From: Phoronis australis
Taxonomy: Eukaryota; Animalia; Phoronida
Direction of reading: 5' to 3'
Assembly: GCA_002633005.1 (NCBI GenBank)
Contig: NMRA01000475.1
Coordinates: 124,001 to 188,000, forward strand
DNA length: 64,000 nucleotides
How positions within the stretch are numbered: position 1 is the stretch's first letter; each line of letters starts with the position of its first letter. The notes beneath the pieces were generated by a model, which made no database searches, was not told the origin of the DNA, and was given only the letters and a program-made list of their open reading frames with translations. Both the position numbers and the translations under genes were made by a program. Positions 6,851 through 59,013 of this stretch are shown here, piece after piece.

Positions 6851-9800
6851 ATGGTAAAGTAGTCGGTCAACTGGTCTTAGAATATTGCTGGTTAGCACGT
6901 TGAACCAGTGCTCGTATTTTGTTACCTTGACATTCTCTGAAAGTAAAAGAGTGCATAACTTCGTTGTTCGTGACGTCGGTAACGACTAACGAAACTGACC
7001 AATTTGACCGTCTGATTCTGAATCGGAATGACTTTTGAGTAGGCTACCGTAGGTTATGAAATGTGTTGGCTCGTCCTGTCACCACTTGATTGTTGTAGTT
7101 ATCTGCTCATTCCATCCATAATTTTTGCTCCTCATCCCAAATTTTCGACGGGTCTGTCCTCTATGTAGGCCTGGTAATTTAACGGGAGTGCCCCACATTT
7201 TGAGTCATTTTTTGTCGTTTAGCTAATAATGTTCTTCACTTCTTGTAAGCTTTGCTAGGCAATGACCACCAGCTTTGCATGATTTCAGCTGTGGAGCCCT
7301 CAACAGCGCAGCCCTCAATTATTTTGATGTCATGTTGACAATATTTTTTTGTACTGTAGGACATGTAGGTAGACAATCAGTTAAAGATTTTTAAGCATTT
7401 CAGTAATTCTGTGTTTCAATTTGCCGGCATGCATATGCATGATTTGTTGGCCCAGTTCAGACAGTAAGAATACTGTCTAGATCGAATGCAATTGGTTCAA
7501 CATTGCCTGCCCTTGTGGCAGGATTGTTGGTCTTCATGGTAACTTGCCAATTAACGCTGAGCGCTGGCTTCAACTTTTGAGTGAAAATACTGAACAGTCA
7601 AATGCTAAACAAATTCAAACTTACCTGTCAATTAACTTTGTTCCTTGAACCTTTACTCGAGCAATTTACTTGGCCACATGTTATAAATCGACTGTTTACA
7701 ACCATATTTTCTTACAGCCAAGATCACATTTTTTGGTCGAGTGATTAATAATTTGAATATGTGGACAAAAAATGAAAGGGAGATAGTTGCAGTTTTGGCT
7801 ATGTAATTACATCCTGTCGTCACAGTAACTATTTCCGTATTACTTTATTTTATCAATCTAAAAGTAAAGCGGCTCGGGAACAGTTCCATTAAAGGTCATC
7901 AGCTGATATCCACAGTTGTATTATCTCCCTTTTATTTTTGTCCTAATTATGCAAGTCACCTGACGAAAAAAGTTGTTACCTTGGCTATAAGAAAATGGAC
8001 GATTTTTAATGTGGTCAAAAAGGACAAAGTTCATTAACAGGTAAGTCTGATCTTGTTGAGCTTTCTTGTTTTCAACCAGCACCTGGAGATCAGGCCTTTA
8101 TGCAGGGTAGGTCCATTTGGATGCCTTAGCACTAATATCAAGGCTCTGGCAAGGACACCCAATGTATCATTTAGACGCCCACTGTCAATAGGAACCTTTC
8201 AAGTTTGGACTCACACATTGTAATGATTACTAGGAAGCCTCTGAAGGCTCAGTGGGGGCTCTTTTTTCAAAGCAGGAAGAAATATACAATGCATATACAA
8301 AGTATATGCATTGTTGCTATTTTGACACTTGATTGACAGCATTGTAAAAGTCTTGGTCTACACCATTTTTTTATTAAAATGCTCACTACAGAAAGCTGTT
8401 TTGTAAACTTAGATGTAAAAACCTTGGTCTATGCATTTTTTGTAAAAAANACGTTTTTCCGCGTATGTATAAGTAGGTCAACCAGTAAAGCGTTCTCTGA
8501 CCTTCAGCATTCACAAAGCCGGTCACCTTGACGCAGTCCTCCACGACCTCACGACAAGAAAACTCCCCACAAAATGGTAAAGTAGTCGGTCAACTGGTCT
8601 TAGAATATTTCTAGTTAGCACGTTTAACCAGTGCTCGTATTTTGTTACCTTGACATTCTCTGAAAGTAAAAGAGTGCATAACTTCGTTGTTCGTGACGTC
8701 GGTAACGACTGAACTGACCAATTTCACCGTCTGATTCTGAATCGGAATGGCTTTTGAGTAGGCTACCGTGGCGTAGGTTATGAAATGTGTTGGCTCGTCC
8801 TGTCACCACGTGATTATTGTAGTTATCTGTTCATTCCATCCATAATTTTTGCTCCTCATCCCAAATTTTCGACGGATCTGCCCTCTATGTAGGCCTATCA
8901 CTTAACCTGGTAACCTAACAGGAGTGCCCCACACTTTTCATATTTTTGTCATTTAACTGATAATGTTCTTGTAAGCATGATTTCAGCTGTGCAGCTCTCA
9001 ACAGCGCAGCCCTCAATTATTTTGATGTCATGTTGGCAACATTTTTTTGTACTGTAGGACGTGTAGGTAGACAATAAAGATTTTTAAACATTTCAGTAAT
9101 TCTGTGTTTCGATTTGCCGGCATGCATATGCATGATTTGTTGGCCCAGTTCAGACAGTAAGGATAATGTTTAGATCGAATGCAAGTGGTTCAATATTGCC
9201 TGCCCTTGTGGATTGTTGGTCCTCATGGTAACTTGCCAACAGATCATTGATGCTGAGAGCTGGCTTCAACTTTTGAGTGAAAATACTGAACAGTCAAATG
9301 CTAAACAAATTCAAACTTAGTTGTCAATTAACTAAATTTGTTCGTTGAACTTTTTCTCGAGCAATTTACTTGGCCACATGTTATAAATCGACCGTTTACA
9401 GCCACACAACATTTTTTGGTCGAGTGATTTATAATTTGAATATTTAGGACAAAAAATGAAAGGGAGATAGTTGCAGTTTTGGCTATGTAATTACATCCTG
9501 TCGTCACAGTAACTATTTCCGTATTACTTTATTTTATCAATCTAAAAGTAAAGTGGCTCGCGAACAGTTCCATTACAGGTCATCAGCTGACATCCACAGT
9601 TGATGTATTATCTCCCTTTTATTTTTTGTGTCTTAATTATGCAAGTCACCTGACCAAAAAAGTTGTTACCTTGGCTGTAAGAAAATAGACGATTTTTAAC
9701 GTGGTCAAAAAGGACAAAGTTCATTAACAGGTAAATCTGATCTTGTTGAGCTTTCTTGTTTTCAAAAGTTATCACCAGCACCTGGGCCCTGTTGCATAAA

Positions 9801-12800
9801 AGTTATACGCCGTATAGCAACAATGACGTCGCATTATCACGCATCACGTTGTTATTGTTGAACAATGCACCTGACGTAATGCAACAAACAAACTTATCCA
9901 GCAGATAACTTTTGAAGCTTTATGCAACTCAGCCCTGGAGATTAAGTATGCGTACAAGTCTGCAGTCCTCACTTGTGTGGTAATTGTCCTGCTCCACGCA
10001 AAAAGCTTAGATCAGTGTTTGTGATAAGAATTAAGGATGTCAGCGGTTCTTGTACAAATCTTTTGACAAAGCACACGGTGCTGCGAAATGGGCTGAGTTT
10101 CTAATCACTTAAAAGTTCCTTATCTACTCGGATGAAATTGATACCAGGGAATGTTTGTGTTCAGAATTGTCTAGAACATCAACTAATTATATGTGTTTTT
10201 CAACGGATTTTGTATGTTACATTTCAGTCTTTGCCTCCCCTCAGAGTTCTAGTCACCGGTGCTGCTGGCCAGATTGGGTATTCGCTGCTGTTTTCGGTTG
10301 CCAAGGGAGATGTCTTCGGCAAAGACCGGGTAATTATTAGATTATAAATTATTTAGGTTTTCTCTCTTGTACCTTTTTCAACATTTCGTTGTCTATGGTT
10401 AGGCTGTGCACGTTTGGGATTGACTGGTAAAAATTGGTGTTAGGTACTAAAATTGTTGTATTTCAGCTTTATAATACTGTTAATATCATACAAGTTCACC
10501 CTGGTCCATACATATAGGTGCTGACCAGCAGGTTTACTCATGGACCACTAATCTTACAATGTAAAATCTTTTTCACGGATTAAGGTATAATCAACATGGT
10601 GTGTTTTGTCTGAGATAATGTGCTTATGCTTGTTAGGCAATTTAAATGTGATTGGCTATGTGGATTGTTTTAATTCATCAGTTTTTTCAAGGCGGTAAAG
10701 TTTTCAGGATTGATCACATAATGGATTGGAGTGTAGATCAGTTTTTGGGATGTTGACAGCATGAGCATAGTAACCAACTGGCAGGTCAATGACAGGTTCA
10801 GTGATCTGGTGTGGTGTTGTGGTGAGGCACTGGAGATGGCCTGAGAAAAACTTGTAATTTGTTTGTGATTCCAGGAAATTACCCTTGTTCTGTTGGATAT
10901 TACACCCATGCTGGGTATCCTAGAAGGAGTGGTCATGGAGCTGAATGACTGTGATCTTCCTAAACTTGGAAGTGAGTAATTTGAACATTGCTTAGCGCTT
11001 AATGTCAGTACTTCTTCCTGGTGATTGATAAACCTTAAGGTTTAGTTTTTATGCGTCCACATATAAATATGTGGGCGCATTATGCCGTCATCTCCGTCTG
11101 CCCGTCCGTCCGTCCGGGCGGCGTCCGCTGCTCTATCTCCAAAACCCTTTGACATACATTCATAAAATTTGGTACTTATGTTCCATTCATGAATGGGACG
11201 GCATGAGCGAACTTTCGGACGGATCCGAGTACCGGTGTGCCCCCTAGTGGCAATTTTAGTTTTTTACGCTTACCTTTGTTTCTTCGAAAGTCGTGAACGG
11301 ATTTTTATGAAATTGGTATGGAGGCACCTGCTAGTGAGATGATGCTATCCAATTTTTGGATGGATTCGGCGTAGTTTGTGCCACCTAGTGGCCATTTTAA
11401 CTGTTTTCGAGTCTATTTTGTTGCGTCCACCCCTCTATCAACTAAACCGCTCAAAGGATGATTGTGAAAATTGGCATGTATGTGCTTACTATGAAGAGGA
11501 TGGTTGACAACGATTTTCTGACGATTTCGACTACTGTGGCGCCTCCTAGTGGCAGTTTTTTTTTTGCGCCTATGGCTGTATTTCCTAAACCGTTAGCAGG
11601 ATCTTTACGAAATTTAGTAAGTACATTTATATGATGTTAACAACAGACGACGACGACTTTTGGACAGATCAGACTACCGGTGTGCCCCCTAGTGGCAATT
11701 TTATTTTTTACGTTTTCCTTTGTATCTTCAAAAGTCCTTAATGGATTTTCATGAAATTTAATATGTAGGCACCTTTTAGTTAGATGACGCTATCCTCCCG
11801 TTTTCGGATGGATTCGACGTAGTTTGCTCCACCTAGTGGCCATTCTTACTGTTTTCGATTCTGTTTTTTTGCGTCCACCCCTCTATCAACCAAACCGCTC
11901 AAAGGATGATTGTTAAAATTGGCATGTATGTGCTTAATATAAAGAGGACAGTTGATGTTGAATTTCCAACGATTTTTACCACTGTGGCGCTTCCTTGTGG
12001 CAGTTTTGTTTTTGTTGCGCCTATGGCTGTATCTCCTAAACCGTTCGCAGGATCTTTACTTAATTTAGCAAGAGTATTTATATGATGTTGACTACGGATA
12101 AAAAAAAATTTTAAACATAGGCATCTATTGGTGTGATGATGCTATCTTTCTGTTTTTGGATGGAATTGAGGTATTTTGCGCAACCTAGTGGCCATTTTTG
12201 CTGTTTTCAAATCTTGTCTTTGGTGTCCACCCCTGTATCAACCAAATCATTTGAAAATTGGCATATATGTTCTCAGTGTGAAGACGACCTTTGATTATGG
12301 TGACTGACTACTGTGGCGCCTCCTAGTGGTAGTTTTGTTTTGCGCCCATAGTTGTATCTCCTAAACCCACGGCATGATCTTTACTAAATTTAGTAAGTGT
12401 ATTTATATGAAGATAACAACAGACGACGACGACGAATTTCAGGCAGATCCAACGGACACTGTGCCCACTAGTGGCAATTTCATTTTATTCTGTTTTCCTT
12501 TGTTTCTCTGACATTCCTTGACAGATGTTTATGAAATATGGCATGTTCCTGTTTTTGGATGGATTATATGTTTTTGCGCCATCTGGTGGCCATATTTATG
12601 ATACAAATAAATAACCCTAAAAGCACACCATTTGCAATGAGTTTGTGGGTGCATTTTAATGCTCCGCGTTGCTCTTGTTAGTCATTTCTGGGCATATTTG
12701 AACACTGTGGTTGAGATATCCATGAAACATTTTTTCAATCCACAGCCTGTTGCATGAAAGTTGCTAATGACAGAAATTTGGTCTTGCCGTTCCTCTTCAA

Positions 12801-15800
12801 AATTGGTCCAAAAAGGTTTAGCCAAGTAATTATGAGCTCCTCATAACCCAGAAATAATTTATAGAAATCATTTCAATTATTAACAGTTATGTATTTTTGA
12901 TTGGAAACGCTACGCTTTATCTGAAATGAGATTTAAGTATTTTTCAGAATTAGTTATTTGAAGCGCAAGGCAGGCTCCTGATGATACAGCAAGGTATTGA
13001 ATACTCGTAATACCTTTCTGTATTGAAATATTAGTTGCACATTTGTAGTCTTTGTTATAATCAGACTTAGCACTGTTGTTTTATGGGGTTTGAGTATATA
13101 GTTTGGAGAACTTTGACCGTTACTTATTTAGATAGGTTTCCATGCTAGGCTCGCGCTAGATATTACAATGGACTCTCGAAATTGATTAAAAAGTTTGAAA
13201 ATTTTGAGCTATCGTGAAAAGTTAATGCAAAACGTTTGATTTTTGCCAGTACGCAGCACTTGATAAAGTACACTACTGCACTACTGTTTTTCATAGCATG
13301 CTTTTTACTAATGGATAAAACGAAAAAATGGACATTGTAGAATAACTCTTACTAGTGAACCAGCATAAGACAATAAGCTAAATAAATATTTGAGTTCATT
13401 CAACAGTAATAACTTTATTGCTCTTTTCACACTCTCCTGTTTCTAATCTGGGAAGGAGTTTACTGGACAAGATCTCAAATAAAAAATATATTCCAGTTTT
13501 GAAATGTCCAACGCATGGTTATACCTGTTTTGATGAATACAAACTGGACTGGTATAGTAATTATTACTGATGCTGCTGTGTTGTTATGTCTAAGCTATAA
13601 TTTAATATACACTATCTTCCATTATGCAGAGATCATATTCACAGACAAGGTAGAGGAAGCGTTCCGTGACATTGACGTAGCCATTCTGGTGGGTGCCATG
13701 CCCCGCCGTGAAGGCATGGAACGGAAGGACCTTCTGGCAGCCAACGTCAAGATCTTCAAGGAGCAGGGTGACGCCCTGGAAAAGTTTGCCAAGAAGACTG
13801 TCAAGGTAGAACTGTGAAGACTTTTGTACTCTTTAAATTTTAACACGTCTGAGTTTCATCTATGTTAGTGATGCTAGATAAGTCAGTATAGTTACTTTAT
13901 GGGTATAGTTTTGGTGAAGTCGCAAATACTGCTACTGCCTATATTTAGTAAGGAGTTACTATACACAATACTTTTCTTGTCATAATTTACTGTTACTGTC
14001 TGTGTTTAGTGAGGGGTTGTTATCTTTTGGTTCCTCAAATGGATTTTACACATTCAAATTTTGATAAAACTAAAAGTCATGTATTAGGATCCCAAAAGAT
14101 TTTTAATATCTCCTGAGAGATCCATATACTGATGGATTTTTGCTGTGTTAAAAAACAATTTTTACCTTGCATGTGGCCAGTCCAGCTGTTGCAGACTCTG
14201 GTATTGCTTTTCTCTTTGTAGGTTGTCGTCGTTGGCAACCCAGCCAATACAAACGCTCTGATGGCAAGCCACTTTGCCCCATCAATACCACGCAAGAATT
14301 TCTCATGTCTTACCAGACTGGACCAGAGTCGAGCAAAGTTCCAGGTACTGATTAAGCATGTTGTGTGCACATTCGCACGTCTTCGTCTTGACATTGCAAC
14401 CAAATTTTAGACCTGTCAACTGATTTTATTTTCTTTCGCTTGGATTATGAGACAGTGCTTTTTGATCATGCATTTAGTTGTATATCTTGGCAAGGTTTTT
14501 GAACCCATTCTTAAAATTATAGCAAATGATGAGGTTAACAGGTAGCTGTTTGGATGTGTGACTACACAATTTACTGAGATAATTATCAAACTACTGCACA
14601 AAACTTTTCAATTTATTGGTTAACTACTGTGCAGCGCAAGTTGATCAAAATAGCTGTCTTGTGGCTCAGTTTTGCCTAATCTGGCATTAAATGTACAAGG
14701 TCTGTGAATGGGGTATTGTGCAACACTTATAGCCACAATATCAGTGGAGATTAGACAAAATTACAACTAACTTGTTGCTGATATAGATACATACTTGAAG
14801 CTTTATTTCCCAAAATTCACACTTTCCAGATTGCAGCCAAGTTGGGTGTTGCCGTGAATGCTGTGAAAAACGTTACTATCTGGGGCAACCATTCTTCTAC
14901 CCAATACCCAGATGTTAATCATGCCACAGTGGAGGTCAACGGTGAGACGGTCCCTGTTCGAAAAGCCGTGAAAGACGATGCTTGGCTGAATGGTCAATTC
15001 ATCAAGGTAAATGCTACTGCTGTGTCCATACTGAGTTCGTTTTTTTAATCCACATATACGTATTATGTTCAGAGTTAATTTTGCTCTCATCTTGATCTAG
15101 AGCGTATGATCTCCAAACTTTATTCGAGACTTGACTTTATGATGTGATATTGCATGATTACTCAAAGCATGGAATCAATCGATCAATTATCGAGACTAGT
15201 CTCCAGAGAAGTTCGATGACCAGATGCTCAGAGTTAGTTACTATGTGGTCTTGTAGAAGGCCATCCGTGGTCTTTGCCTGGTTATATCTTCCAAAAGTGC
15301 CTTGGTGGAGCGTGTTACTGAATGAAGAGCATGGCAGAGGTCATTTTTCAGACGTGTTACCTGTGAAGCTCCCGTAGCGGCCATTTTGTTTTTTGCAACC
15401 TCCTCTCTGTTGATCAAGTCACGTGAAAATCTGTTGGAAAACTTGTGTTAAAGATCTCCCTGGGACATAATTGGAAACATGTCTTTATTAGGAAGGGATT
15501 ACATCTGCTAAAGACTGTTGCTGCCCCCAAAATTAGCATTTTTTGAGTTTTGGGATTCAAAAAATTATCACTTGGTCGTTTTTTACATTGTAGGTTGTGG
15601 CATTGGCTCATATATGTGGAATGTAAGTGACTTTATTGTCTTTTGTTTCCGTTCATGTGAAATTTTGTGCTTGACAGACTGTCCAGACCCGCGGTGCTGC
15701 CGTCATCAAGGCTCGCAAGCTATCCAGTGCTATGTCCGCTGCTAAGGCAACCTGTGACCACATGAGGGACTGGTTCTTTGGAACCGCTGATGTAAGTATT

Positions 15801-17691
15801 AAGTCTGGTAGCAAGATTCTCCACACTCAAAAATTCAAACAGATCGCGTTTACAACCTTTTTAAGACAATTTGCTGCCCGTACACATCATAGCAAACACT
15901 CAAAACTAATACTTTTTGTTCAGAATGAAAAAATCAATTTTGTGTCGTGCTATTTAAACAAGTCAGAGGCAAAATCAAACAGGTCACGATGACCTGTTAA
16001 AACATGTCATGGAGAACACTGGGTAGTGTGTGTGTATATGTGCGTTTATGTGTGTCGTCCATTAAGTTGCTATTGTAACAGGCACCTTGCACTGTGCTTG
16101 CACTGCTTGAACATGGAGGAAATGGGAAATAATTTAAAACAGAATTCCAGGATTTTTGGACATTCTGTCAAAGGCTGGGGCCTAAAATGACTTGGGAAAT
16201 TGGTTGCTGTTTTGTGAAAAAGTCAAGTAGTCAAAATTCGTGTATTGCCGATGCTGGAAGTTGACGTCGCAATAATGCATCACACTTTTATTGTCTGTCA
16301 TTTGTGAAATCGTTTTTTGTTGCCTCCTATTTAGCTATTTTTATTGTTTTTTGTTTGTAAGTTGAGTGAGCAATTACTGGGGACCCCATACCTTATCTAT
16401 TTTTAGAATCCACTAGTTGTTAATGGTATCAGTCAGCGTGCTGGAGTCGGACTCTGAAAATTAAAATATGGGTATTAGTGGTACAATTAGGACACAGTTT
16501 GCATATTTTGCTTGTAAGTTTGCTGCTGAATTTCGCTGTAATGGCTGTGTTTCGATCTTTCGAGTTTGTGGCTCAATTGTGCTACTTATCATTGAATGGA
16601 TTCCAAGAATAAGGGCAAGAATTGTTCAGCTGTTGTAAAAATTATCCGCAACCCTTTTACAAGCAAGAATCAACACATAGTTTGAGAAACACGGCTAGAC
16701 AAACCAAGAGTACCATTGGCAGACACTGAAAAGAATAGCTTCCAGTTTTGGGAATGCCTGATTATAGACAGTTAGAATGTTTTACTAAAGTTACATTCAA
16801 GCTCTAAGATTCCACTAAACAAAAAAACATCTTGCAACTTTCCTTTAGTGTTGCAGCGAGATCACCTATTTCAATTCCTATTTCGAGGAGTGGTTTAAAA
16901 CGATGTCTGGGTGGAGATGTTAGACAAAGCCATGCTTTGTGTATGTACAATGTCCTAAGTGGAGAAGTTGCATGGGGGCACTTCAAGTGATGACTTTCAC
17001 CAGTATGTGTTTAACATGGCAGTCAACATCATTTTGTACAACTTACAATACCTGGAAAATTTGAGACGGAATATGTATATTTTATTTGTGTTTATGCACA
17101 CTTGTACAGAGTGTTTTGCTTTGGGTCATTTTGTGCCATGTTGAATGTGTTGGTTCACCATGAAGGCATTTTATCTCTATTGATTAGTTAGACACAGATA
17201 AGGTGCTCTGGCATGACACAGATAAGGTGCTCTGGCTTGAATCATTGAGTTAAGTCTGGTCATACTGTTTATTTTTGAACTTTGTTAACTCAACTGATTG
17301 GGCAGTTGTGTTGGAAAATTGGGAAGTGATATTTGAGTAAAGGTGTCATAGCTGTGATGCAGTAATGTAGACACTAAAATTATTCAGCATTAAATGGCTG
17401 AATTGTTTTACGGACTGTATTGCCTTTATGGTTTGGCTTCACTTGTCTCGTGTTGGCACGGTGTCTTCTATTCTGTTTGTGCAGGGCGAATGGACCTCGA
17501 TGGGCGTTCTCTCTGATGGTTCGTACGGTATCCCCGAAGGCCTAATGTACAGTTTCCCAGTTACGATCAAGGATGGTGATTACTCTATCGTACAGGGGCT
17601 CTCTATTGATGACTTCTCTCGCGAGAAGATGGACGCCACAGCCAAGGAACTACTGCAAGAAAAAGCTACCGCCGAGCAAGAGTGTCAGTGA
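6851..17691 (+). CDS. MDH1: Cytosolic malate dehydrogenase
   Basis: ATG-only first coding exon at 6851-6853 (duplicate copy at 8574-8576), then exons 10228-10329, 10875-10971, 13630-13805, 14222-14344, 14830-15006, 15678-15791 and 17485-17691. Motifs: [75 protein letters not shown]. Confidence 0.97.
8451..9941 (+). other. Near-identical duplicate of 6728-8090 (MDH1 first exon region), probably an uncollapsed haplotype
   Basis: Starts immediately after the single N at 8450 and is colinear with copy 1 apart from SNPs, small indels and a MITE. Confidence 0.8.
9785..9934. mobile_element. 150-bp MITE with CTG TSD (possibly PIF/Harbinger-like)
   Basis: TIRs ggccctgttgcataaa / tttatgcaactcagcc (13/16 match). 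CTG is duplicated at 9782-9784 and 9935-9937. The empty site acctggagat is present in the duplicate copy at 8081. Confidence 0.8.
11046..12679 (+). mobile_element. HINE/pearl-like (Helentron-associated) non-autonomous element with an internal ~150-bp tandem array
   Basis: T-run start, 5' hairpin atgcgtccac..gtgggcgcat, (CGTC)n microsatellite near 11095-11115, internal ~150-bp units in a ~446-bp trimer, 3' sub-TIR gtgggtgcat and terminal gctcttgtt. The family assignment is inferred from this architecture. Confidence 0.7.
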
Positions 17692-17706
17692 CAGTCAAAA
17701 CTGTGA
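17689..17706 (+). other. MDH1: Putative stop-codon readthrough extension of MDH1 encoding PTS1 (X-Q-S-K-L-stop)
   Basis: The sequence reads TGA CAG TCA AAA CTG TGA in frame with the MDH1 CDS. The six nt after the stop (CAGTCA) fit CARYYA, and the extension ends in SKL. Confidence 0.75.
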
Positions 17707-17933
17707 GACACATGCTCCTCGTCGGGTCTAAGGCACCAGTTAACAATGATTATTGTATTGGTGGTTGTATAAGTATATACAACTATTAGAACAACATATG
17801 CTTTGAAACTTAACTATTTGTAGATCCGTGGCTTTAATATGCTACCAAGCTTTTACTACAATGTATGTTTGCTTAATTCCACTGAATTCTAAGCCCATTT
17901 TGGAAGTAGTGGTTTGTTAAAAGTTGTTAGTTT

Positions 17934-18040
17934 TAGTTTGTGGGAGTGCATAGTCTTGCATGCACTGTGTAGTTTGTGGGAGTGCATAGTCTTGCATGCA
18001 CTGTGTAGTTTGTGGGAGTGCATAGTCTTGCATGCACTGT
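17934..18040. repeat. 35-bp tandem repeat, 3 copies, in the MDH1 3'UTR
   Basis: tagtttgtgggagtgcatagtcttgcatgcactgtg x3. Confidence 0.9.
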
Positions 18041-18310
18041 GTTGTCTGCATTGAAGGTTAAGTAGCCTGCTTGTTTGTGTGTCTTGCAGTTCATGGAAAC
18101 AGTTCTATTTGACATTTTCGGTCATTCTTGTCATAAATGGAAGTTGTGAACAACCCTAGTTTTTCTAGTTTACCTATAAATCATTGTTTCAAATTTGTTC
18201 AATCTGTGAGACAATTGCTGTGAAAATGTTTGTGGACACATTTTAATGATTGCTTTGAATGTTAAGGATTTGGCAAAATAGACGATGGAGTAAAATTTGA
18301 GAAATGTTGT

Positions 18311-18322
18311 TTTATTAATAAA
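18311..18322. terminator. Palindromic TTTATTAATAAA: candidate poly(A) signals for both MDH1 (+) and ALKBH6 (-)
   Basis: AATAAA on + at 18317-18322 and on - at 18311-18316, between the two convergent stop codons. Confidence 0.55.
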
Positions 18323-18818
18323 CTCACTAGTACATTAATAACATTGATGTTTACGCTGAGCGGAGCAATATTAAAGGGACAGTTCTTCTTTACTCATCAC
18401 CAAAAACAACTTTCAAACCAAGGCACTTAGCAACAGAAAATCCATTCAATATGATAACCGACACTGCTTCTCATCTACAAACGGTCGTAGGCATGTAAAA
18501 AGGGTGTGCAAATGTCATCAATTTAGACAGCCACTTTTAAATTTGGTACACTCCATAGCAATTGCAGGCGATTTGTGAATTTGTTTTGAAAGTTATAAAC
18601 CGATTACCATTTTGGCTAGAAATGTAAGACCATTTAATCAAATGGACCTACTTTGTGCTTTCCAGATTTAATGGTGCAAGTTTGAAGGAAATGTACAGTT
18701 AATTTCTAAAACTATAATCATTGCACGATGGCTATTCTTAAAACTCATATGACGATTAATTTATCAACATGCAAGCAATGATACAAGACCCACAAATAAT
18801 TCATTTCAACAAATTGCC

Positions 18819-24532
<5,714 letters not shown>

Positions 24533-26663: not shown

Positions 26664-29600
26664 ATGTCTAATTCAAAGAAGTCACGTCAGCACAGTGTAC
26701 AAGTGGCAACAGACTCCTTCACCAAGATGAGTCACCAAGCTCACCTACTGGAGCAGGCCCTGCAGCAGAATACAGTCGTCTGTCTTGGGTCAGAAATGGG
26801 AAAGTTCTTCATTGCTGTCTCGATGATCAGAGAATTAGCTCACCAAGTACGGAAACCAATCACTGACGGAGGCAAACTCATCGTGTTGCTGTTTTATGAA
26901 GGTACCGTTTCCAGAAGGTTTTTATTTTTTACCGCATTGATGCTGTGAATGGTTGATGTATTTGCAAAATGTCATGGAAGCTGCTTAGATTTTGTCAAAG
27001 TTTTGGCTAGGAGAATGAGGGAAATCAAAACATTAGCAAAGAACTATCATTAGATTTTTGACATACGGATTTATTTTTCATTTTAGTTGAAGACTTTACA
27101 TTGTCTGCCCAGCTGAAATGGGTTTACTTCCAAGATGGTCATGTTTGTTTGTCTGAAGACATTACCTTCAGTTGTGTGCCTAACTGACATGCATGTATTT
27201 CCAAGATAGTCGTATTTGTTTGGCTCAGTTTTGATTCAATTTCCTCAATGCTCATTGTAATATGCACATAAAATGATATGTGGAATTGTACGTTTCAGAG
27301 TCTCAAGCTTCTCAGCATACAAGCTGTATACAACTTCATACTGATCTTAAAGTTTGCATGTTCCCCAAAGACTGCAACCCCCAGGAGCAGAATTCAAAGG
27401 TTACAGGTCACCATGTTTTGGTCATGACCCCATGTGTACTTCATGCCTTTCTGACCAATGGTGTAATGTCACTGATTCAGGTCAACCTCATCATCGTTGA
27501 TGAGTGTCATCGTGCCATTAACGATGACGTCTTCCATCGTATTATGCAGTGCTATGATAGTTGTCAGTCGCATCAATGTCCTCGTATTTTAGGAATTACT
27601 ACAACTGTGCTAAATGATAAATGTGACTCGCCTTCAGAACTTGAACGAGAGCTGAATAGTTTAGAGTCTGTTATGCGGTCATCCGTGCAGGCGTCTAAAG
27701 ACGTTCTTAGCTCTGACGTTTTCTCGCATCAAGTAGAAGAAACGATTCTACATTGTGAACAGTACAATGATCAAAGTGGCCTTGTAAAGGATATCGACGA
27801 CATTCTGGAATCGTGTTTTGCGTTCATGAAAGGTTGTAAATTGTCGAGCGAAGAAGTCAATGGTGATTATGACCCATGGAGTATTCCTCGGTTTGTCTAC
27901 TCAGAATGCCAACTGGTCCTCCATCTACTTGGTCCATGGTGTGCTAGTCGCGTTGCGCAGGCTTTTGTTCGCCAACTGAACAAGTTAATCGAGGTAGAGA
28001 CTGCAATACTGCGACGCCAGCTTCTCCAGTGGGCTCATACACAACTACAAATGATCAGCACACTGTTTGAGTTCTCTTTCAACCAGGTCATGTGCCTGGA
28101 TGACTTCAAGAAGCTTATAAGTTCAAAGGTCAAACAGCTGTTGGAAGTCCTTTACACCTTCAAGCCAGCTGATAATTACACCATCGGTATGCTTGTTTTT
28201 ATTGAAATAGGTTTGCTTCAAATGAAAGGAAAATATGGGTATTTTTACAGGTATGACACTGAATTCATGGAACTTGAATAACTCTTTCTGTCAAGATTGG
28301 CTCTGTTGACCGGTAGAGTTCATGTTACTAACTGTCATGGTACGCTTTCAATGTTTGGCCGTGATAGTAGAAAATTATTACTTACAACATTAATCTAATT
28401 AAAAAGATTAAAAAGTAAGCAACTTTACTCAAGCTGAGACAATAATGTTCACGCTTGGCCAATAGTATTCAAGTATTTTAGGCCTGCATTATTCAAGATT
28501 CCAAACTAAGCTGGCATAAACTTGTTAGCAACATGACAGTTGAGTGCACTGCGCAATGCCATATGCAAATTGGCCATGGGATAAGTTTATNAGACTGCAA
28601 TACTGCGACGTCAGCTTCTCCAGTGGGCTCATACACAACTACAAATGATCAGCACACTGTTTGAGTTCTCTTTCAACCAGGTCATGTGCCTAGATGACTT
28701 CAAGAAGCTCATAAGTTCAAAGGTCAAACAGCTGTTGGAAGTCCTTTACACCTTCAAGCCAGCTGATAATTACACCATTGGTATGCTTTTTTTTATAGAA
28801 ATAGGTTTGCTTCAAATGAAAGGAAAATATGGGTATTTTTAGAGGTACGACACTGAATTCATGGAACTTGAATAACTCTTTCTGTCAAGATTGGCTCTGT
28901 TGACCGGTAGAGTTCATGTTACTAACTGTCATGGTACGCTTTCAATGTTTGGCCGTGATAGTAGAAAATTATTACTTACAACATTAATCTAATTAAAAAG
29001 ATTAAAAAGTAAGCAACTTTACTCAAGCTGAGACAATAATGTTCACGCTTGGCCAATAGTATTCAAGTATTTTAGGCCTGCATTATTCAAGATTCCAAAC
29101 TAAGCTGGCATAAACTTGTTAGCAACATGACAGTTGAGTGCACTGCGCAATGCCATATGCAAATTGGCCATGGGATAAGTTTATTTTGATCACCATTTGA
29201 CAAGAACATATGTTTTGTTTGATTATGTAATTCACGTAAAATAGCTTGAATGCTATTGACCGGCAATCTTATGCTTGAACGGCAATGGTTACTAAGAGAA
29301 AATTTTTTTTGAGCTTGGAATTCAATCTTGAAAAAGATTACTGGCTCAACAAGCTTTTCCATATCTTTTGACAATTAGCCTGATATACCCCTGTCGTCTT
29401 TGTACTCACTTAGTCCTTCTCAAAGTAACTGAGCCATGGTTAGAACATTAGCAGGGATATTCAAGCTTTGAGAAAAATGTCAAGATGACATACCATTAAT
29501 CTTGATCAAGCATGGTCAATTCAAAGTTAATTAAGTTGGGTAGAAAATAAAATGTCTCGCTCCATCATGGTCTACTTGTAATAACTTATAATTTTTAGCT

Positions 29601-32600
29601 AAAGATTTTAAGAAACAATTTACTCTTGAAGCGAACATGCTCCTGATATTGACAATACTTTATTGTAGATTAGTTATGTATACTATTTACATTGGTTGCA
29701 TGAAGAGCAGTGGGCCGTTGTTAGATTATTTGACTTAACACTTCCCTGTAGTAGTGTATATTGAACTTGTTCAGTATAAACTGAAAACTTATCAATATTA
29801 TGACTTGGTCGGTTTTTCTGACATAAAAGCTCTGCATACCTGGCCAGTAAATCTTCTTTATCAATTTCCAGTGCCGTACAACGGAGTGGATGACTACTTG
29901 GACATTGAAGAGGCATCAGATGAGTCTGACCTGGAACCTGATGATGATGATGAAGGCCAACAGAGGGCAGCAGTTGTGAAGACATCACAGGTATGTTGAG
30001 TGAAGCAGCCTGTTGTGACTTGTACAACATGTCTTGTGTTGAAGACTCCTTGTCTTTTTGCTAGACAGAATGCACATTGGGTTTCTTGTCTCCTTTGACA
30101 CTCAGAGACTTGTCAGTTAAAGAAAGATATAATTGTAAAGAAAGATATCAGTGAAGACAACACAACATATTTAAGTTTCAATTCTGCATATATTTGACTG
30201 TTTATTTCCAAATTTTGAAAGTTTATTAGTGTTATTAATTAAAATTATTATTATTATTATTATTAATTCCTACTAAATTGGTTTGCGTTACGATTAGCTT
30301 TTTGAATGTTTGAATGAAAATGAGTGGTGCTGTGGTTAAGAGACGTTCCTGAAATTGTTACCTACTGTTGTTCCATATTATTGTTATTGTGAAGTTAATA
30401 CTAATTCAAACTTTGCATCCAATTTTTAGAATTTAAGAATCTCTGCTTCTTTGTCAAAGGAGTCGTTGTCCTTTGCTATTGTCAAAATGGCATATTTTTA
30501 TGTACCGTGCCAGAGAGTTGTATGGCTTAGCTTTTCAAGCATCAGTCTATTTTTATACATCACATGATACTAATAAATAACCATAGCAGCACTGCGTTTG
30601 CCATGTAGTTGTAGATGCTTTTCAGGTCTTTAAACTGTAAAAATTACCACTTTCCATTGTAATGTATTGTATTTAAAATAAAATGGTTCTGTGCCCTGCA
30701 AAAATTACTGTGTCTTGTAACAAATGGTATTAAATGTAATAGGCTCGTGTACATTGTAGAAATTAATATTGTCTTGTCATACAGAGTACATAGTAGTATG
30801 TTGGTAATGTAAATTTTTGTAGGTGAAGATTTCTTTGCATACAGACAAGTTATGTAATGGTGAATATTTTTGATCGTTCTTGTCTATGGCCATTGTTCTC
30901 AAATTGTGAGTTATAGGCAAGTGACAGCTCGTTGGAGGTCTGACGTTCTGGTTGGTTGGTGGAAACTCAAATAAATTGGCTGCTTGCATTCTGAGTTCCC
31001 ACCAACCAATCAGAACGATGGAGCCAGTCTTCAGCTTGAGAATAGCCACAGGTGTTTAGGCATGTAATTTGTTGTCTGTGTGCAATGCAATGTTTATCAA
31101 TAGGTTATATTTCAGTGTACTTTATGACCACTGCTCATTCTAGGACTATGTAACCATGTCAAGCACATCGGGTGTACTAGTACAAGAGAAGCTGTGTGGC
31201 GTTGTGGTGTGTGACAGACGACATGTGGCCTTTGCCCTAAACAAGCTCATCGAGGAGCTAGGGAAGTGGGACGAAGACTTGTTCTTTGTTGAGAGCAGCC
31301 ATATTTTTGGTGAGTTTTGATTCTTGGCATAACAGATTTTATCAGTGTTCAAATTTGACGGCGGTTTTGAGACAACTGCGTAGAGTGGTGTCTAGTTCAC
31401 AATACAGTTGCATGTTAACACTCTCCAGTTACTAATAGATGATTGACGAACTTTCCTCCCCAACTACTGCCTTTGAATACAGGCTGAAGTCATTAGTGTT
31501 TCTGAACATCGAAACAGTTGTAATTTGAAATCATGTACTACTTTGCTTTCTGCCGATGCCAGTCTTGACTTTTAAATGCCACCCATTTTCCAGTCTAGTG
31601 GAGATTGTGTGTGCAGGATTTGTCTACCAAATTTGTAGTCCACATTGGAACAATATGACATGACAATAGAAGTTTTTCTTAATTGTTTGCAACATAATAA
31701 TTTGTATGCAGCGTGATGATATTCGCAACATTTTAGGGCTTGGAATTTTCCTCTTTTGCAAGGATTTCCTCTTTTTTGGTTTCTATTTCCTCTTATTTTC
31801 ATTCCAGTTTCCTCTGACAGTCTTTTTTCATCTCTTTTTTATCATTATTTTATTTTACAGCACAAAACATATTTCTAACACACAAACGTATTTATTTGTG
31901 GAATGATACATCATTTGAAACTAAAGTTTTTCCTCTTTCTTGCCATTGGTCATTCCAAGCCCTGGTTTATTACTTTGTAAGTGCTTTGCAATTAGTAGTT
32001 TTATGGTGACAAATTAATTCATAGAAACACAGTGGCATTGCTTTGGAAGAGCAAATATACATGTGAAGAAAGTTTTTTGTTTTTTGATGCCAGAACATAG
32101 TTTACTGAGGCTTTTGTTTTTAAATGTTATAGGTGCAGGGTCAGTGGACGGTCGTGGGAAAAGGTTAAAGGTAACGGACGTACAATGTAGGAGACAAGAG
32201 CAGGTGTTACGAAGGTTCCGTATGAAGGAGATCAATCTGCTGGTTGCAACCGGTGCTCTTGAAGAAGGTGTTGACTTGCCACCATGTAACCTAGTGGTGA
32301 AGTTTGATGCCCCCACCACATTTCGGTCGTATGTTCAGTCAAAGGTATGTTCTTGTATCTAGCATTGTCTCAAGATAATAACTATATGTAAAAGAACCAT
32401 TGTGACAGTTCGCAAATGTGTTCCTATGGTGGAGAGTATGGCCAATGTTAATTTTTGAACAGGTCTACTGCGGTGGCGACCCCTAGTTGCAATTTTAGTT
32501 TTCTTTGCGTCTATTTCCTCAATGTTTAGTGAATTCCTTGATTGATCTTCATGAAGTTTGACGCATATGCTCTAAGTGATGAGAATATGGTTGGTGTTGA

Positions 32601-35600
32601 TTTTGGATGGATCTGACTATTGCGATCCACCCTAGTGGTACATTGTTAAACATGTGGTTGGAAATTTGGTCTGAGTGAGCGTCTGGTCTGAGTGAGCGTC
32701 TGGTCTGAGTGAGCGTCTGGTCTGAGTGAGCGTCTGGTCTGAGTGAGCGTCTGGTCTGAGTGAGCGTCTGGTCTGAGTGAGCGTTTGGTATGAGTGAGTG
32801 TTTGGTCTGAGTGAGTGTTTCTTATGAGGAGAGCACAACAGATGTATAGCTCGAACTATCGTGGAAACATTTGAAAAGTGAGTGTCCCTTATTTCTTTAA
32901 CATTTGCAATGCACTTTTTGGCACATATCAATGCTCAGCATTGCTTTTATTAAAGTTGTTCATTTAACAGAATGTGACCAGTAACTGATACAAGGATTTG
33001 TTTTTATTCAAATTTTACATTAATTGAATTTCCTAAATGCAACCGATTTCTTTCCAGGGTTGTGCAAAAGCATCAAAGGCCAAATATGTTGTTTTGGTGG
33101 ACCAAGAAACGATGTCAGACTTCTCTGAAAATCTTGTCATTTTTAAAGGAGTTGAAAAGGTGATTACTCTGTTACACATTACAAGCTTTTATCCACTAAA
33201 GAATAAGGTTTCTGATCAGGCCTTCTCTCCTAAGCTGGCCTTGCCCCTCATGTGAGTAGCCATGCTGGATGAAGTGTTTTGAATTGACCTTCTTACCATA
33301 ATATTCTGAATTGGAACTCAACTTTATTGTAATCCGTACTTTTGTAGAATTCATAAAGCATTTTAACACTTTGCAATTTACTGCAAAGTTGGCTGTGTAG
33401 GACATACCACCACTAGCAATATGGCCGTCATAGGTACCTCATAGGCATCATGGAATAAATCATTTGCACTACTCTAGTTAGGCTGAAACTTCTCTGTTCA
33501 ACCTTTACACAGAGTGTAACAGTGACTGTACAAATGTTGCCTAATCTGTAAGAGCATCTTCTTGAAACAGCGTGTTTTAAAGAATTTATGAAATGGTGCA
33601 AAACACTTTAAATTTGATTTTGGTGATGAATTATCTTGTGTAGCAATTCAAAACTTTCACCCTGTTTGATGTAATATGATTTTGCTCTAGATATTAAAGA
33701 GTCGATGCAACAACAGTGTAGACTCCTATGACCCAGATTGTTCCTCTGTGGATGACCTACTTCCGCCTTATGTTGCAGCCAATGAGGAGGAAGGAAGCAG
33801 TGTGACAATGTCGTCTGCTATAGAAATCGTGAATAGGTACGAGAGAGTCACAATGGTTACCTGTTAAAAGTTGCATCAAAAGGTCATTCTTCAAATCAAA
33901 AGCAGTTCATTTACTGAGGATGGTTTCTTGAGAATTTATTTGTTATCTCATAAAGTCTTGGAGTCCTTTATCTGTACTGCTAGTTACTTGTGAAAAATTA
34001 GATTTTGAATTCAAATTTAATGTGTAATACTCACTAGGTTCTGGGTTGTGTGTTTCGTCTTTATGGTGTTTATATTACTAGGTAGCTTTAAGAAGCTAAT
34101 CAATTCGAAGTGTATGACAGTGAGTCATTGATGTTCATTGGAGCCCCTGTGTTGACAGGTACTGTGCACGACTCCCCAGTGATGCATTTACACACCTGGC
34201 ACCAAGGTGTACGACGAAACAGATCGATGGTCAGTATGTGTCCACTCTGTGGCTGCCCATCAACTCACCCATCAAAGTACCCATCACTGTAAGTAAACGT
34301 AAACTATGTCATTTGTTTGGGATTCCGAATAAGACATGCGAAGAGTTCCTATTATGAGGAGAACAGCGTTTTTTTACTGAATATATTGACTATCACTGTT
34401 ATCCTAAATTTTGAAAACGTATTCTTTACAGGGAGTTGTGACAAACTTTGATTTCCATGACTAAATAGTAATACCAGGCAACAATTTAAAAAACCCTTTG
34501 TTATCAAAATCAGCATTATTTTATTAAGATGCTGATATTTGTCCCTCATTTTGAAGACTTGCTTATTTTTGTTTCAGGGGGCTTCAATGAAGAGTGAAAA
34601 ACTCGCAGAAAGAGCTGTTGCATTAAAAACTTGTGAAGTCTTGCACAAAACTGGTGTGTGGTGCATTATTCCTTATGATTTTTAATGTCTTTAGTTGGAA
34701 AAAAGGAATAAAAGGTAAAACTAGCAGATGTTTTTCCGAGTAAGGGAGAATCTGACTTCTCTGAAGGGTCGTGTTCATGAACTGCAACAACTGTACCGTG
34801 GAACTTTGTCCGAGTTATGGCAAGACCCGACATATGCGTGTTGAACTTACACGAGTTTTACTATATGCTTTAATTAGGTCAGATATGTGGAGAGTTTATT
34901 CCTTTACACTATGCACTAAACATGCTAAAAACCAAAACATCAAGTGTATAATACGGAAACACCGAGTAGCGCTGACAGCACGAATACTTAATGATTTAAC
35001 CACACTGTTAAATTGTTCTTTTGAATTTTCATTTCTGCTGGTATGTTATTAATGTAATTGAGCATGTTGTCTCAGGTGAATTGGACAATAAACTCAACCC
35101 TGTACAGGAAGAGATGCTTTCCCGGGAGCACGGATATTTTGGGCTGGATGATGAGGATGTTCGCGAGGGCCAACCGCGCCCAGGTACCACCAAGAGGAAA
35201 CAGTATTATTATAAAAAGGTAGGTGTTGAAGTGGCTGAGTTACTGAATTATTTTCAGTGGCTATGTGCATTGCGCTTTCTCTCTTGGTGTGTCAGAGCTA
35301 TTAACTGTGTACACCAGTACCTACGTGGCTAACTACTGAGTGTGGTGGGTCTCTCTCTCCCTCCCTCCCTCCATCCCCCCTTCCTCCGTTACTCCGTTTC
35401 TCTCTCCCTCCCCCCTCTATCTCTCTCCTGTAAGGTCAAGACCCTTTAGTTGCATCATTCCGTCAACTCTGTTGTACATATGAGCACCAACTGTGACTAG
35501 AGACTAATCTGTTGTGGATTAGCATTTGATTTAGGAGATCAGAAAGATGTCATTTGTACATATGCTGCTGAAAGTAGGGTTGGCAGTGAGCCTGAGTAGC

Positions 35601-38600
35601 TTGGTGGCTCTTGAAGGCAAAGTTTTACTAACTTCTTAAAAAGAAATCTGCATTTGTGTCAGGTGGTATTGGAAATGAAACATAAACAAAGTTACAGAAT
35701 GTTACCATTTGTGTAAAATATCCTCTAAGGGGTCTACCTCACTCATATTGTCAACAATGCCCAATAAAGGAAAAGTCACAGTTTTAATATGTTGTGCATT
35801 GACTCCATCTGAAGCAATTTGGGACTTTAACTGTGGGATTTTGTTTAAGGTGACTAAGGAATGGATGGGTTGAGGTACTCATTTTGTATGGCTGTCTGTG
35901 AGTCTACGTGTAAGGTCCGTACGTGTGTCATCAGTGCACTGTTAATGCTATTATGTTTGGTAGTCTTGTACATTCTTTTACCTGGGTTCTCCTTTCTCCA
36001 GTTGTCCACTGCCTTCAAGGACAGTTACCCTAGGCCAGGGAAGCCATGCTTTCTCTACGTCATTGACATGAAGTTGACAGCAGCCATAACTGAGGAACAG
36101 AACACTAGAGGGCGTTCCATCGATGACCCACAGAGCACACCCCTGTGTCTGGGAATATTGACTGCCAAGCCTCTGCCTGCAGTGAGTTACTACCATGTCT
36201 TGTGATAACTTCAAGAGGTCTAATCTAATATCCAACAGTTATTCTGAGGGTCCCCATGGAAAGCAGTGTAAACTGATGGGGCTACCCTCATTGTAAATAT
36301 CACAATAATAAATAAATAAATAATAAATAGATATCTCAAAATTGCTTTTGTCAGCCCTTTTGAAAGTGTTGACAATGTGGGAGGAACAGAATATCTGCCG
36401 AAGCTTTGTTATTGGTTGTTTATTAGTAAATTGTTTGATGTGACAGGTTTTACTCTTTAACAGCTTGTCTCTTTGAAGTTCAACAATTGCTACGCGTAAT
36501 TTAGATTGAAATCGCAGTCATTTATATAGTTCTTGTCCTTTATTTTATAGATTGAAGTATATTTTACTGAGAATACATTTATTTACGGCTTGAAAACAAA
36601 TCAGCATGTCCAGATACAGGCATTGATTTATGAGAGATATTTTTGAACATGAAAGTCCTCTACTAGTAATGAACATGAAACTCCCCACTAGTAACGTTTA
36701 AACTTTTTATGTTACAGGTTCCGGAATTCCCTGTGTTCACCAGATCAGGTGAAGTGACAGTATCAGTGAATCTGGTCAGGTCAGAGGTGGCCATCACTGA
36801 GGCTCAAATGTTGAATGTTTGTCAGTTTCATCGTTACTTATTCTCTCAAGTTTTGAGGCTAGAGAAATCACCAATGATTTTCGACCCTCAGGAGGCCCCA
36901 GTCGGGTTTGCCATTGTGCCGATGTTAAAAGGCAAGTTTTTTTCCTAAAAGTGTGGATTACGTCTAATTACTTGCTTTTAGGCAACAAAGTAAATGAGTT
37001 TTTTTCTGATTAGTTTTATTTTTTATTTCATCAGCATCCAAATGTTGTGTTTATGAACTCTTGTACAATAGTTCATGCCATTAAAAGTAAACTTCTGGTC
37101 AAGTGCTTTAACTTAATTTGAAATATCTCTTGATGTTGTTACTGCCAACATTTCAATGTAAGAGTTGTATTAGGAATGTATTAGGCGTTCTTGAACCTCA
37201 TTCTGTTGAACAGGCCAACTGTCAATACAAGTTGAAACAATTTGATATCAAGTGAAAAGTACTTAAAAATGGTCTTAGTTTGTACCAAATTACCTCAAAC
37301 TCTACCCTGAAAATTTCCATGAGAAATTGTAAGTTAAATGTAATTTTTCTTTCAGGTGACTGCGGCAGTTCAGAACTTGACTGGTCATTTGTGCAAAAAA
37401 TATGTGACAGTCAGGGAAAGAAGCTGGAAAAAAAGGGTGCAACTTGCACACCTTCAAATCCATTCATTTTTGTCGAGGAAGAGTTCAAAGACACAGTCAT
37501 CATGCCGTCATATCGTAACATAGATCAACCCCAGTCCTTCTACATGGCGGACATACTGTGGGAGTTGACTCCCCTCTCACCATTTCCCAGCCCTGAGTTT
37601 TATAAGTCCTTCAATGATTATTATGTGTCCAAGTATGGTTTAGTTATCACGAACCTCAAGCAGCCACTACTAGATGTTGACCACACGACGGCGCGGATGA
37701 ACTTAAGCACACCGCGCTACATTAATCAAAAAGGTGTGGCTTTACCTACGAGCAGCGCTCAAACAAAGAAGTCACTGAGGGAAAACTTGCAACAGAAACA
37801 GATCTTCATCCCTGAGCTATGTATCATCCACCCTGTGCCAGCCTCTTTGTGGAGAAAGATGGTATGTCTGCCCACCATCCTGTACAGGATGAATTATCTT
37901 TTTGTGGCTGATGAGTTGAGAGAACGGATTGCCAGAGAGGCTCACATTGGTGTCATTGATTTACCAAGTGATTTTCGGTTTCCTAAGCTGGAGTTTGCCT
38001 TTGGAGCAAGGAGAACCGAGAAGTCAAAGGCGACAACTGGTGTCACTTCTGATGAGGAAGGTGTTGAAAGTGACACAGGGAATTCTGTACAGAGTAAAGA
38101 CCTCAGTGGGTCTGAACCAGCAGAAGAGGGCCATGATCTTGATTTTGGTGTCTGGAAAACACCTGAGGAGCCCGTTGGTGACGCCATTGAAGAGGACATC
38201 AAATCACAAAAGGATGAAGAAGGTGAAAAGGATGGATGGCCAGTGCTGAGTGATGCCAACAAGAATTCTGAGCAAGATGAAGCTGAACTTTTTGAGGAAC
38301 TAAGTGCTGATTGTTCTGTGCCAGGAACTGACTCTATTGCTGATAATAATTCGACAGGTGTTGTGGCGTGTACCTCAAACATGTCCACAAAGGTATGTGA
38401 AAGTGTACCAGTTGCTATAGAAGTAAATGATCTCGATGCTGTAAAAGTACCTGGAGATTTGGCAAAATCTGTCACTGATTCCACTGATAATGCAGATGGT
38501 GTTTATTTTGAAGCTGAAACAGACAATGTGGTCGACGAGAAACTCTGTGTCAGTGAGAAGATAGAACACAGTAACAGTTGTGTTTCTGAGAAAATTCCTC

Positions 38601-58600: not shown

Positions 58601-59013
58601 TACTGTTGAGCCAGAGGTTCAAATTCTATCATGGTGAGAGCCCCATCTTCGTCGCTGTCGTACTGCGAGAACAGTTCAATAGTTTCGATGGTTACATTGT
58701 CGAAGACGTCGCCTTCAGGAAGGTCCCCTTCATACAACCTTTGGTAATATTGATGCAAATATACTGCGTAACAACCAAGTAAGACAGCAATCACACAGAC
58801 AAGTGCCGAAAGATATACAACAACGCGTTTGGAGATTGAAAGGTTTAGCGTAATATAATCTGTCGACCTGTTCCCGTTTTCTTGCACCCTGCCTCCGGCT
58901 CCGGTAACATCGCTTGAGCTCTGTGTTGAACGAGTCGCAGTGTCTAAAGATTTCGCGCTTGAATTTAGGCCTATATCCTCCGCGGAAGGAGGATTCGTCT
59001 TCTTCTTCGGCAT
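49644..59013 (-). CDS. SELENON: Selenoprotein N (TM segment, EF-hand, SCUG motif with Sec encoded by TGA at 52661-52663)
   Basis: Exons 58573-59013 (TM VVVYLSALVCVIAVLLGCYAVYL; EF-hand DSDEDGALTMIEF), 56790-56900, 55257-55612 (RFAPQGAAAC), 54450-54601 (IHSEFQLNEPP..PFWFTPAQF), 53794-54044 (EVDIGFMPQMEL), 52556-52765 (LWGALDDQSC-U-GSARTLRE), 51002-51162 (LPNGTV..MNAN) and 49644-49731 (YMYFLKDGL). Confidence 0.95.
50438..50564. repeat. 45-bp tandem repeat, ~3 copies
   Basis: gggagtgaaataaatggtatgaactgcaatc(g/a)gacaatcaaacat is repeated. Confidence 0.85.
52616..52654 (-). promoter_or_regulatory. Selenocysteine redefinition element (SRE)-like stem-loop
   Basis: Starting 6 nt after the Sec UGA, GCCCGAACUCU pairs perfectly with AGAGUUCGGGC (11 bp). 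A G bulge follows, then CGAGAG/UUCUCG closing a UCGA loop. The position matches the SRE known from vertebrate SELENON. Confidence 0.8.
56165..56295 (-). mobile_element. tRNA-derived SINE fragment
   Basis: The minus strand has an A box (TAGCTCAGTGG) and a B box (GGTTCAACCC), followed by tgtgtctttgagcaaagcatttaa, which resembles the conserved central domain of CORE-type SINEs. It does not form a full cloverleaf. Confidence 0.65.
56440..56622. repeat. ~62-63 bp tandem repeat, ~3 copies
   Basis: atgtcaaagcaatgcaattgtgaaatgagtatacactggtgaatattacatg is repeated. Confidence 0.85.

Follow-up and report, generated by a model that had tools for sequence, protein, structure and literature searches.

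Does the cytosolic MDH1 gene of Phoronis australis hide, directly behind its stop codon, a second and peroxisomal form of the enzyme, and which signal would let ribosomes reach it? The question is raised by a 64,000-nucleotide stretch of contig NMRA01000475.1 (positions 124,001 to 188,000; hereafter the window), in which positions 17680-17706 read GAG TGT CAG TGA CAG TCA AAA CTG TGA, that is, ECQ-stop-QSKL-stop in the MDH1 frame. Readthrough of TGA 17689-91 would add X-QSKL, ended by TGA 17704-06. The first-pass annotation had proposed a cryptic peroxisomal isoform with a CARYYA-type readthrough signal. Its description of the locus is confirmed by the sequence, the exon-8 translation, the open 332-residue frame and the spliced reads, all of which give a coding sequence ending ECQ-TGA followed in frame by QSKL-TGA, and the sequence also bears out that CAG-TCA fits CARYYA at every position, its TCA codon doubling as the Ser of SKL.

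Joining eight exons on the plus strand yields an open frame for a 332-residue MDH1 protein (Table 1). Each of the four read runs shows GT..AG joints for all seven introns, and the first mates of the MDH1 reads lie on the minus strand, which in a usual stranded library corresponds to plus-strand RNA. TIGR01758 (cytosolic MDH1) is the top family in two of the three exons scanned and second in the third, and P0166, the closest relative (82% identical), clears the curated cut-off of that family (503 vs 470). In a quick tree the protein sits in the animal MDH1 clade (SH-aLRT 99), where it groups in a 16-row clade of molluscs and one bryozoan (SH-aLRT 96). The gene encodes cytosolic MDH1, is spliced and expressed, and comes from a lophotrochozoan.

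Table 1. Features of the MDH1 gene and its stop region, in window positions.
Feature	Position	Strand	Basis and remarks
MDH1 exon 1	8508..8576	+	5' UTR and ATG (8574-8576); 5' end approximate; read pile-up ending at 8508, intron joint leaving 8576
MDH1 exon 2	10228..10329	+	splice joints in reads
MDH1 exon 3	10875..10971	+	splice joints in reads
MDH1 exon 4	13630..13805	+	splice joints; best family TIGR01758, E 7e-23
MDH1 exon 5	14222..14344	+	splice joints in reads
MDH1 exon 6	14830..15006	+	splice joints; best family TIGR01758, E 1e-23
MDH1 exon 7	15678..15791	+	splice joints in reads
MDH1 last exon (exon 8), coding part	17485..17688	+	68 aa ending ...AEQECQ; splice joints; best PDB matches cytoplasmic MDH 5mdh/4mdh, E 1e-22
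First stop TGA, predicted leaky	17689..17691	+	same alignment column as C-terminus of closest relative P0166
CAG TCA, exact CARYYA hexamer, also codes Gln-Ser	17692..17697	+	sequence
TCA AAA CTG (Ser-Lys-Leu), canonical PTS1 tripeptide	17695..17703	+	sequence, translation
Second stop TGA, puts SKL at C-terminus	17704..17706	+	sequence
Remaining 3' UTR	17707..18290	+	end approximate; fragment ends pile at 18283-18290

That the gene carries a cryptic PTS1 reached by readthrough is very likely, but such a hidden tail is not new. Stiebler 2014 describes high conservation of the cryptic MDH1 PTS1 across animals, Hydra included, with about 1% readthrough sufficing, and gives SKL as the PTS1 prototype (PMC4207609). 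Table S2 of that paper gives TGA CTA as the context in four vertebrates; Drosophila, with its constitutive SNL, and the untargeted C. elegans are entered there as having no readthrough. The animal isoform, MDH1x (Stiebler 2014, PMC4207609; Hofhuis 2016, PMC5133446), involves the same enzyme, a UGA with C at +4 and an in-frame PTS1 tail, and the window gene has each of these: a UGA stop, C at +4, and an in-frame extension that ends in a PTS1 at the next stop. What it lacks is the CUA(G) high-readthrough context, in place of which stands CAG TCA. The tail, known here from sequence alone, is X plus only four residues, unlike that of MDH1x, and its ending is SKL rather than CRL, SRL or SSL. CRL, which the first-pass annotation had assigned to vertebrates in general, holds for mammals; according to the same sources, non-mammalian vertebrates have SRL and Xenopus SSL. 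The window MDH1 would thus belong to the MDH1x system in gene, stop and tail and depart from it in the CUA-context feature. The stop context would be its sole new element, one that comparison with other loci does not support.

We searched metagenome contigs for further loci with a motif of the MDH1 coding sequence that precedes the stop by about 240 codons; because the motif lies so far upstream, their recovery is unbiased by the stop region. The survey covers at least 120 of an estimated ~400 loci. Flanks were available for 80 of them, which comprise 31 eukaryotic mRNA-like, 28 bacterial, 14 intron-containing (six of which gave the last exon) and 7 incomplete loci. The eukaryotic mRNA-like loci were sorted by hand, and one of the 31 ends early, leaving 30 for frame 0. 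Tails were scored with a strict PTS1 pattern, [SAC][KRH][LM], which is the textbook consensus, and with a broad one, [SACP][KRHNQ][LM], chosen after the tails had been viewed. In frame 0 after the stop, 17 of the 30 loci have a PTS1-like end (strict, 9 of 30), against none of 30 in frame +1 and one of 28 in frame +2 (together 1/58). None of the 28 bacterial MDH loci has one.

The animal set numbers 33 loci: the mRNA-like ones minus L009 and L013, which fall outside the animal clade, plus the genomic last exons of L005, L011, L021 and L067. Two further loci were left out, L012 because it seems to have a terminal intron and L079 because it resembles L009. A PTS1-like tail follows the stop in 17 of these (nine strict) and is missing from 16. 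Tails occur in 12 of 14 TGA-C loci vs 5 of 19 with other contexts (Fisher p 0.001), and strict tails in 7 of 14 vs 2 of 19 (p 0.02), both p values being optimistic since the loci are related. The 17 tails stand behind TGA-CTA (7), CTT (2), CTC (2), CCG (1), GGA (2) and ATA (1), TAG-GGG (1) and TAA-AAC (1). The last of these is a 38-residue run, perhaps due to chance; the others measure 4-26 residues, and their sequences look unrelated. In the quick tree the tails are scattered over several deep branches among loci that lack one, and kin share labels, so the counts are not independent. TGA-CTAG does not guarantee a tail, as L021 has the context yet no tail. CAR follows the stop in none of the 33 animal loci, so none of the 17 tails has CARYYA. 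The lophotrochozoan clade of the window gene holds none of the surveyed mRNA loci in the quick tree, and L067, the only genomic locus that is lophotrochozoan-like by sequence (it stands outside the tree), ends in TAA with no tail. A scan of viral contigs returned no matches.

Because PTS1-like tails occur in 17 of 33 animal loci, against 1 of 58 shifted frames and none of 28 bacterial loci, peroxisomal targeting of MDH1 would be ancient and patchy rather than freshly convergent. The choice between an ancient and a convergent origin that the first-pass annotation had left standing thus falls to the ancient one, as print had already settled (PMC4207609, conserved to Hydra) and as the tails throughout the survey indicate. 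Because five tails stand behind non-C contexts, a tail also appears to need no known readthrough motif.

To gauge coincidence, we took every stop triplet of the window as background, 7,393 over the two strands, each with its in-frame run to the next stop. SKL-stop follows three of them (0.04%, the MDH1 site included), a strict PTS1 17 (0.23%) and CARYYA 26 (0.35%); an SKL-type ending together with CARYYA occurs at the MDH1 site only. The probability of CARYYA is 1.15% given Ser as the second codon and, by arithmetic on the ratio, about 5.6% (roughly 6%) given C at +4 as well. Genome-wide, a few chance cases would be expected, yet MDH1 is the gene in which such a tail is expected.

Taken together with the known systems, the locus suggests the following route. 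A small share of ribosomes would pass the first UGA, probably aided by the CARYYA hexamer; by analogy with those systems, it would be decoded at a few percent by a near-cognate tRNA, that for Trp or for Arg in the case of human MDH1x. This would add X-Gln-Ser-Lys-Leu, and, by the precedent of MDH1x, PEX5 would bind SKL and the isoform is predicted to be peroxisomal, where it could reoxidise NADH from beta-oxidation through a malate/oxaloacetate shuttle, on the model of known systems. The gene would then be the lophotrochozoan counterpart of MDH1x, with a type I signal in place of the usual UGA-CUA. That such a readthrough-PTS1 isoform is made, by whatever leaky context, is in our analysis very probable.

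The signal itself has precedents. CARYYA directly after the stop defines the type I (tobamovirus, 'Skuzeski') signal, and the window matches it exactly. Calling the context tobamovirus-type, as the first-pass annotation did, fits the motif and not the stop, which in tobamovirus is UAG-CARYYA (PMC3159437) and here is UGA, as in Arabidopsis eRF1-1 (PMC5397192). That plant gene has the context TGA-CAA-TCA, one purine from the one found here, with moderate readthrough that serves an NMD feedback loop (PMC5397192). In a mammalian OPRL1 reporter, UGA-CARYYA gave about 15% readthrough, UGA and UAG performed similarly and all six bases mattered (PMC4132726). CARYYA lies one change from the CUA motif, and the single change CAAUUA to CUAUUA restored the wild-type level in that reporter (PMC4132726); speculatively, a path from CUA-UCA through CAA-UCA to CAG-UCA could have run through leaky intermediates. 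The metazoan candidate 'bi' (PMC3609751) is a cellular CARYYA case like this one. Short extensions that expose a PTS1 on a cytosolic metabolic enzyme are likewise seen in LDHBx, C. elegans pyp-1 and Drosophila Idh (Table S2, PMC4207609); these are different enzymes, and the cases in that table use TGA-CT. Our literature search, in which coverage of subscription journals was thin, returned no report of a PTS1 combined with CARYYA. We rejected a stimulatory structure 3' of the stop: folding of 17680-17830 gives z -2.8, but a fold window beginning after the stop gives z -1.39, a value inside the spread of 27 control windows. As this is not unusual, a sequence-only signal is consistent with the locus.

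How much of the readthrough the hexamer accounts for is a separate matter. The real tail might be driven by generic leaky UGA-C alone, with CARYYA arising incidentally because a Gln codon happens to precede the serine of SKL. All 12 TGA-C tails in the relatives do without CARYYA, about 1% readthrough is reported to be enough for peroxisomal MDH1 (PMC4207609), every Gln codon yields CAR, and TCA makes up 27% of the Ser triplets in the window. Against this stands the joint chance of about 5.6% given C at +4. Moreover, even an accidental CARYYA should still stimulate readthrough if the ribosome resembles plant, yeast and mammalian ones (PMC4132726, PMC3159437, PMC3609751). We therefore hold this explanation to be a serious but rather unlikely one, and on our analysis we lean, with reserve, towards a readthrough-PTS1 isoform that has CARYYA as its working signal. 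For the hexamer as such, our judgement ranges from an even chance to fairly likely, because a chance match of this size has to be weighed against a low prior, set by 17 tails none of which uses CARYYA. The boldest form of the proposal, that the lineage swapped an ancestral UGA-CUA for a selected, conserved tobamovirus-type CARYYA overlapping the PTS1 codons, is tentative and falls somewhat short of an even chance.

SKL could also be a neutral accident or a dead remnant with no meaningful peroxisomal isoform. A tail is absent from 16 of the 33 animal loci, the C. elegans MDH1 is untargeted, and the window tail is very short. By hand count its SKL lies 13 residues past the conserved E-K/R anchor, the shortest distance otherwise among readthrough tails being 14 in L006, which has the same four-codon tail length (TGA-CTT, LSNL); 13 is also the distance of the constitutive GKL in L019. 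Acidic residues precede SKL, and with a tail so short and acidic-flanked, import of the isoform may be weak. An accident would nevertheless have had to hit background rates of 0.04% for SKL or 0.23% for a strict PTS1, in the very gene where a tail is expected and behind a leaky context, which makes this reading improbable.

Three further explanations would reach SKL without readthrough by ordinary tRNAs. In the first, TGA 17689-91 is an error of the assembly or a polymorphic or edited site, and the protein normally ends in SKL, much as constitutive PTS1-like ends exist in Drosophila Mdh1 (SNL) and L019 (GKL). No variant falls at 17689-17706 among the 40 of 577 variants listed; on both sides of it the depth is 134-827 reads in all three raw-read runs, a 50% variant at 17584 is listed, and a fixed difference at the TGA should rank among the best-supported variants. 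TGA 17689-91 falls in the alignment column where P0166 (82% identical) and several molluscs terminate, and none of the 125 homologous proteins examined ends in a PTS1. Because relatives end at that column, no examined homologue ends in a PTS1 and no variant is found among those listed, the TGA is most likely the ancestral stop position and not a fresh nonsense change; this first explanation is highly improbable. In the second, alternative splicing leads to SKL, with AG 17693-94, which directly precedes TCA-AAA-CTG-TGA, as acceptor or with an intron that spans the stop, a route reported for MDHs of fungi. That AG has no pyrimidine tract, no such joint occurs among the 15 of 147 listed, and only 3 of 503 GT-AG pairs (introns of at least 40 nt) give a PTS1-like end, each at the cost of at least 33 C-terminal residues, so that we give splicing even less credence. 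Selenocysteine needs a UGA, as the first MDH1 stop is, but 17480-18400 gave no match to an Rfam SECIS family even at E up to 5, three chance-level hits lying far under the gathering score, and its decoding as selenocysteine has a negligible probability. Splicing, selenocysteine and assembly error are unlikely sources of an SKL isoform.

Readthrough of the MDH1 stop, as favoured here, would add a lophotrochozoan to the animals with peroxisomal MDH1 and, by prediction, with a peroxisomal malate shuttle. It suggests that what selection maintains may be the result, namely a small fraction tagged with a PTS1, and that the stop context and the sequence of the tail are free to turn over. Should the swap to a selected CARYYA be true, it would be the first example, in the literature searched, of an animal using a type I signal for organelle targeting. 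If the CARYYA signal is real, readthrough screens limited to TGA-CT would undercount dual-targeted enzymes, and under the swap they would miss a class of cryptic peroxisomal ones, at which tails standing behind TGA-G, TGA-A and TAG-G in other invertebrates hint. The 18-nt cassette is also a small natural system for testing how coding and recoding constraints overlap.

Several surveyed loci deserve separate mention. On the arthropod side, the MDH1 mRNAs L032, L042 and L059 (also L047, L069 and L045) have G after the stop (TGA-GGR, TAG-GGG) yet PTS1-like tails: PKL, CQL and ARL, with weaker SAL and SKY. The set lies near the ostracod Darwinula in the tree, with L069 on an open branch. In the genomic locus L012:2883-3080, MDH1 homology stops right at the C-terminus, as at a terminal intron, so splicing might give access to the tails of this set, or else a context that has yet to be described. 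Within each of the sister pairs L001/L074 and L017/L029, one member has TGA and an SKL or SRL tail and the other TAA and none, possibly through paralogues with divided roles or quick loss; the tail of L029 stands behind TGA-ATA. L019 and L011:5135-4926 have a constitutive GKL end, and L011 additionally has TGA-CTA followed by LNNKL.

Within the MDH1 gene, the 3' UTR holds a perfect 36-bp tandem repeat in three copies (17934-18042), across which reads skip 36 or 72 bases; its copy number appears to vary. Intron 3 contains a dispersed, transcribed repeat family (11019-12970), on which RNA reads map by the hundred, divergent in sequence and with loose ends, and two similar segments with near-identical ORF translations flank exon 1 (about 7807-8130 and 9491-9780). 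A convergent expressed gene on the minus strand (18819-20438) ends near the MDH1 3' end and has no Pfam or NCBIfam match; its exons presumably resemble ALKBH6. Farther along, an exon on the minus strand (58516-59076) combines a hydrophobic stretch with a weak EF-hand match (E 0.009), and we take it to resemble selenoprotein N. The window also carries a Dicer gene (27277-39739, plus strand) that encodes PAZ and RNase III domains and an exon of which is 59-65% identical to most of its top matches, from molluscs, nemerteans, an annelid and a brachiopod, and mostly 46-57% identical to arthropods and chordates.
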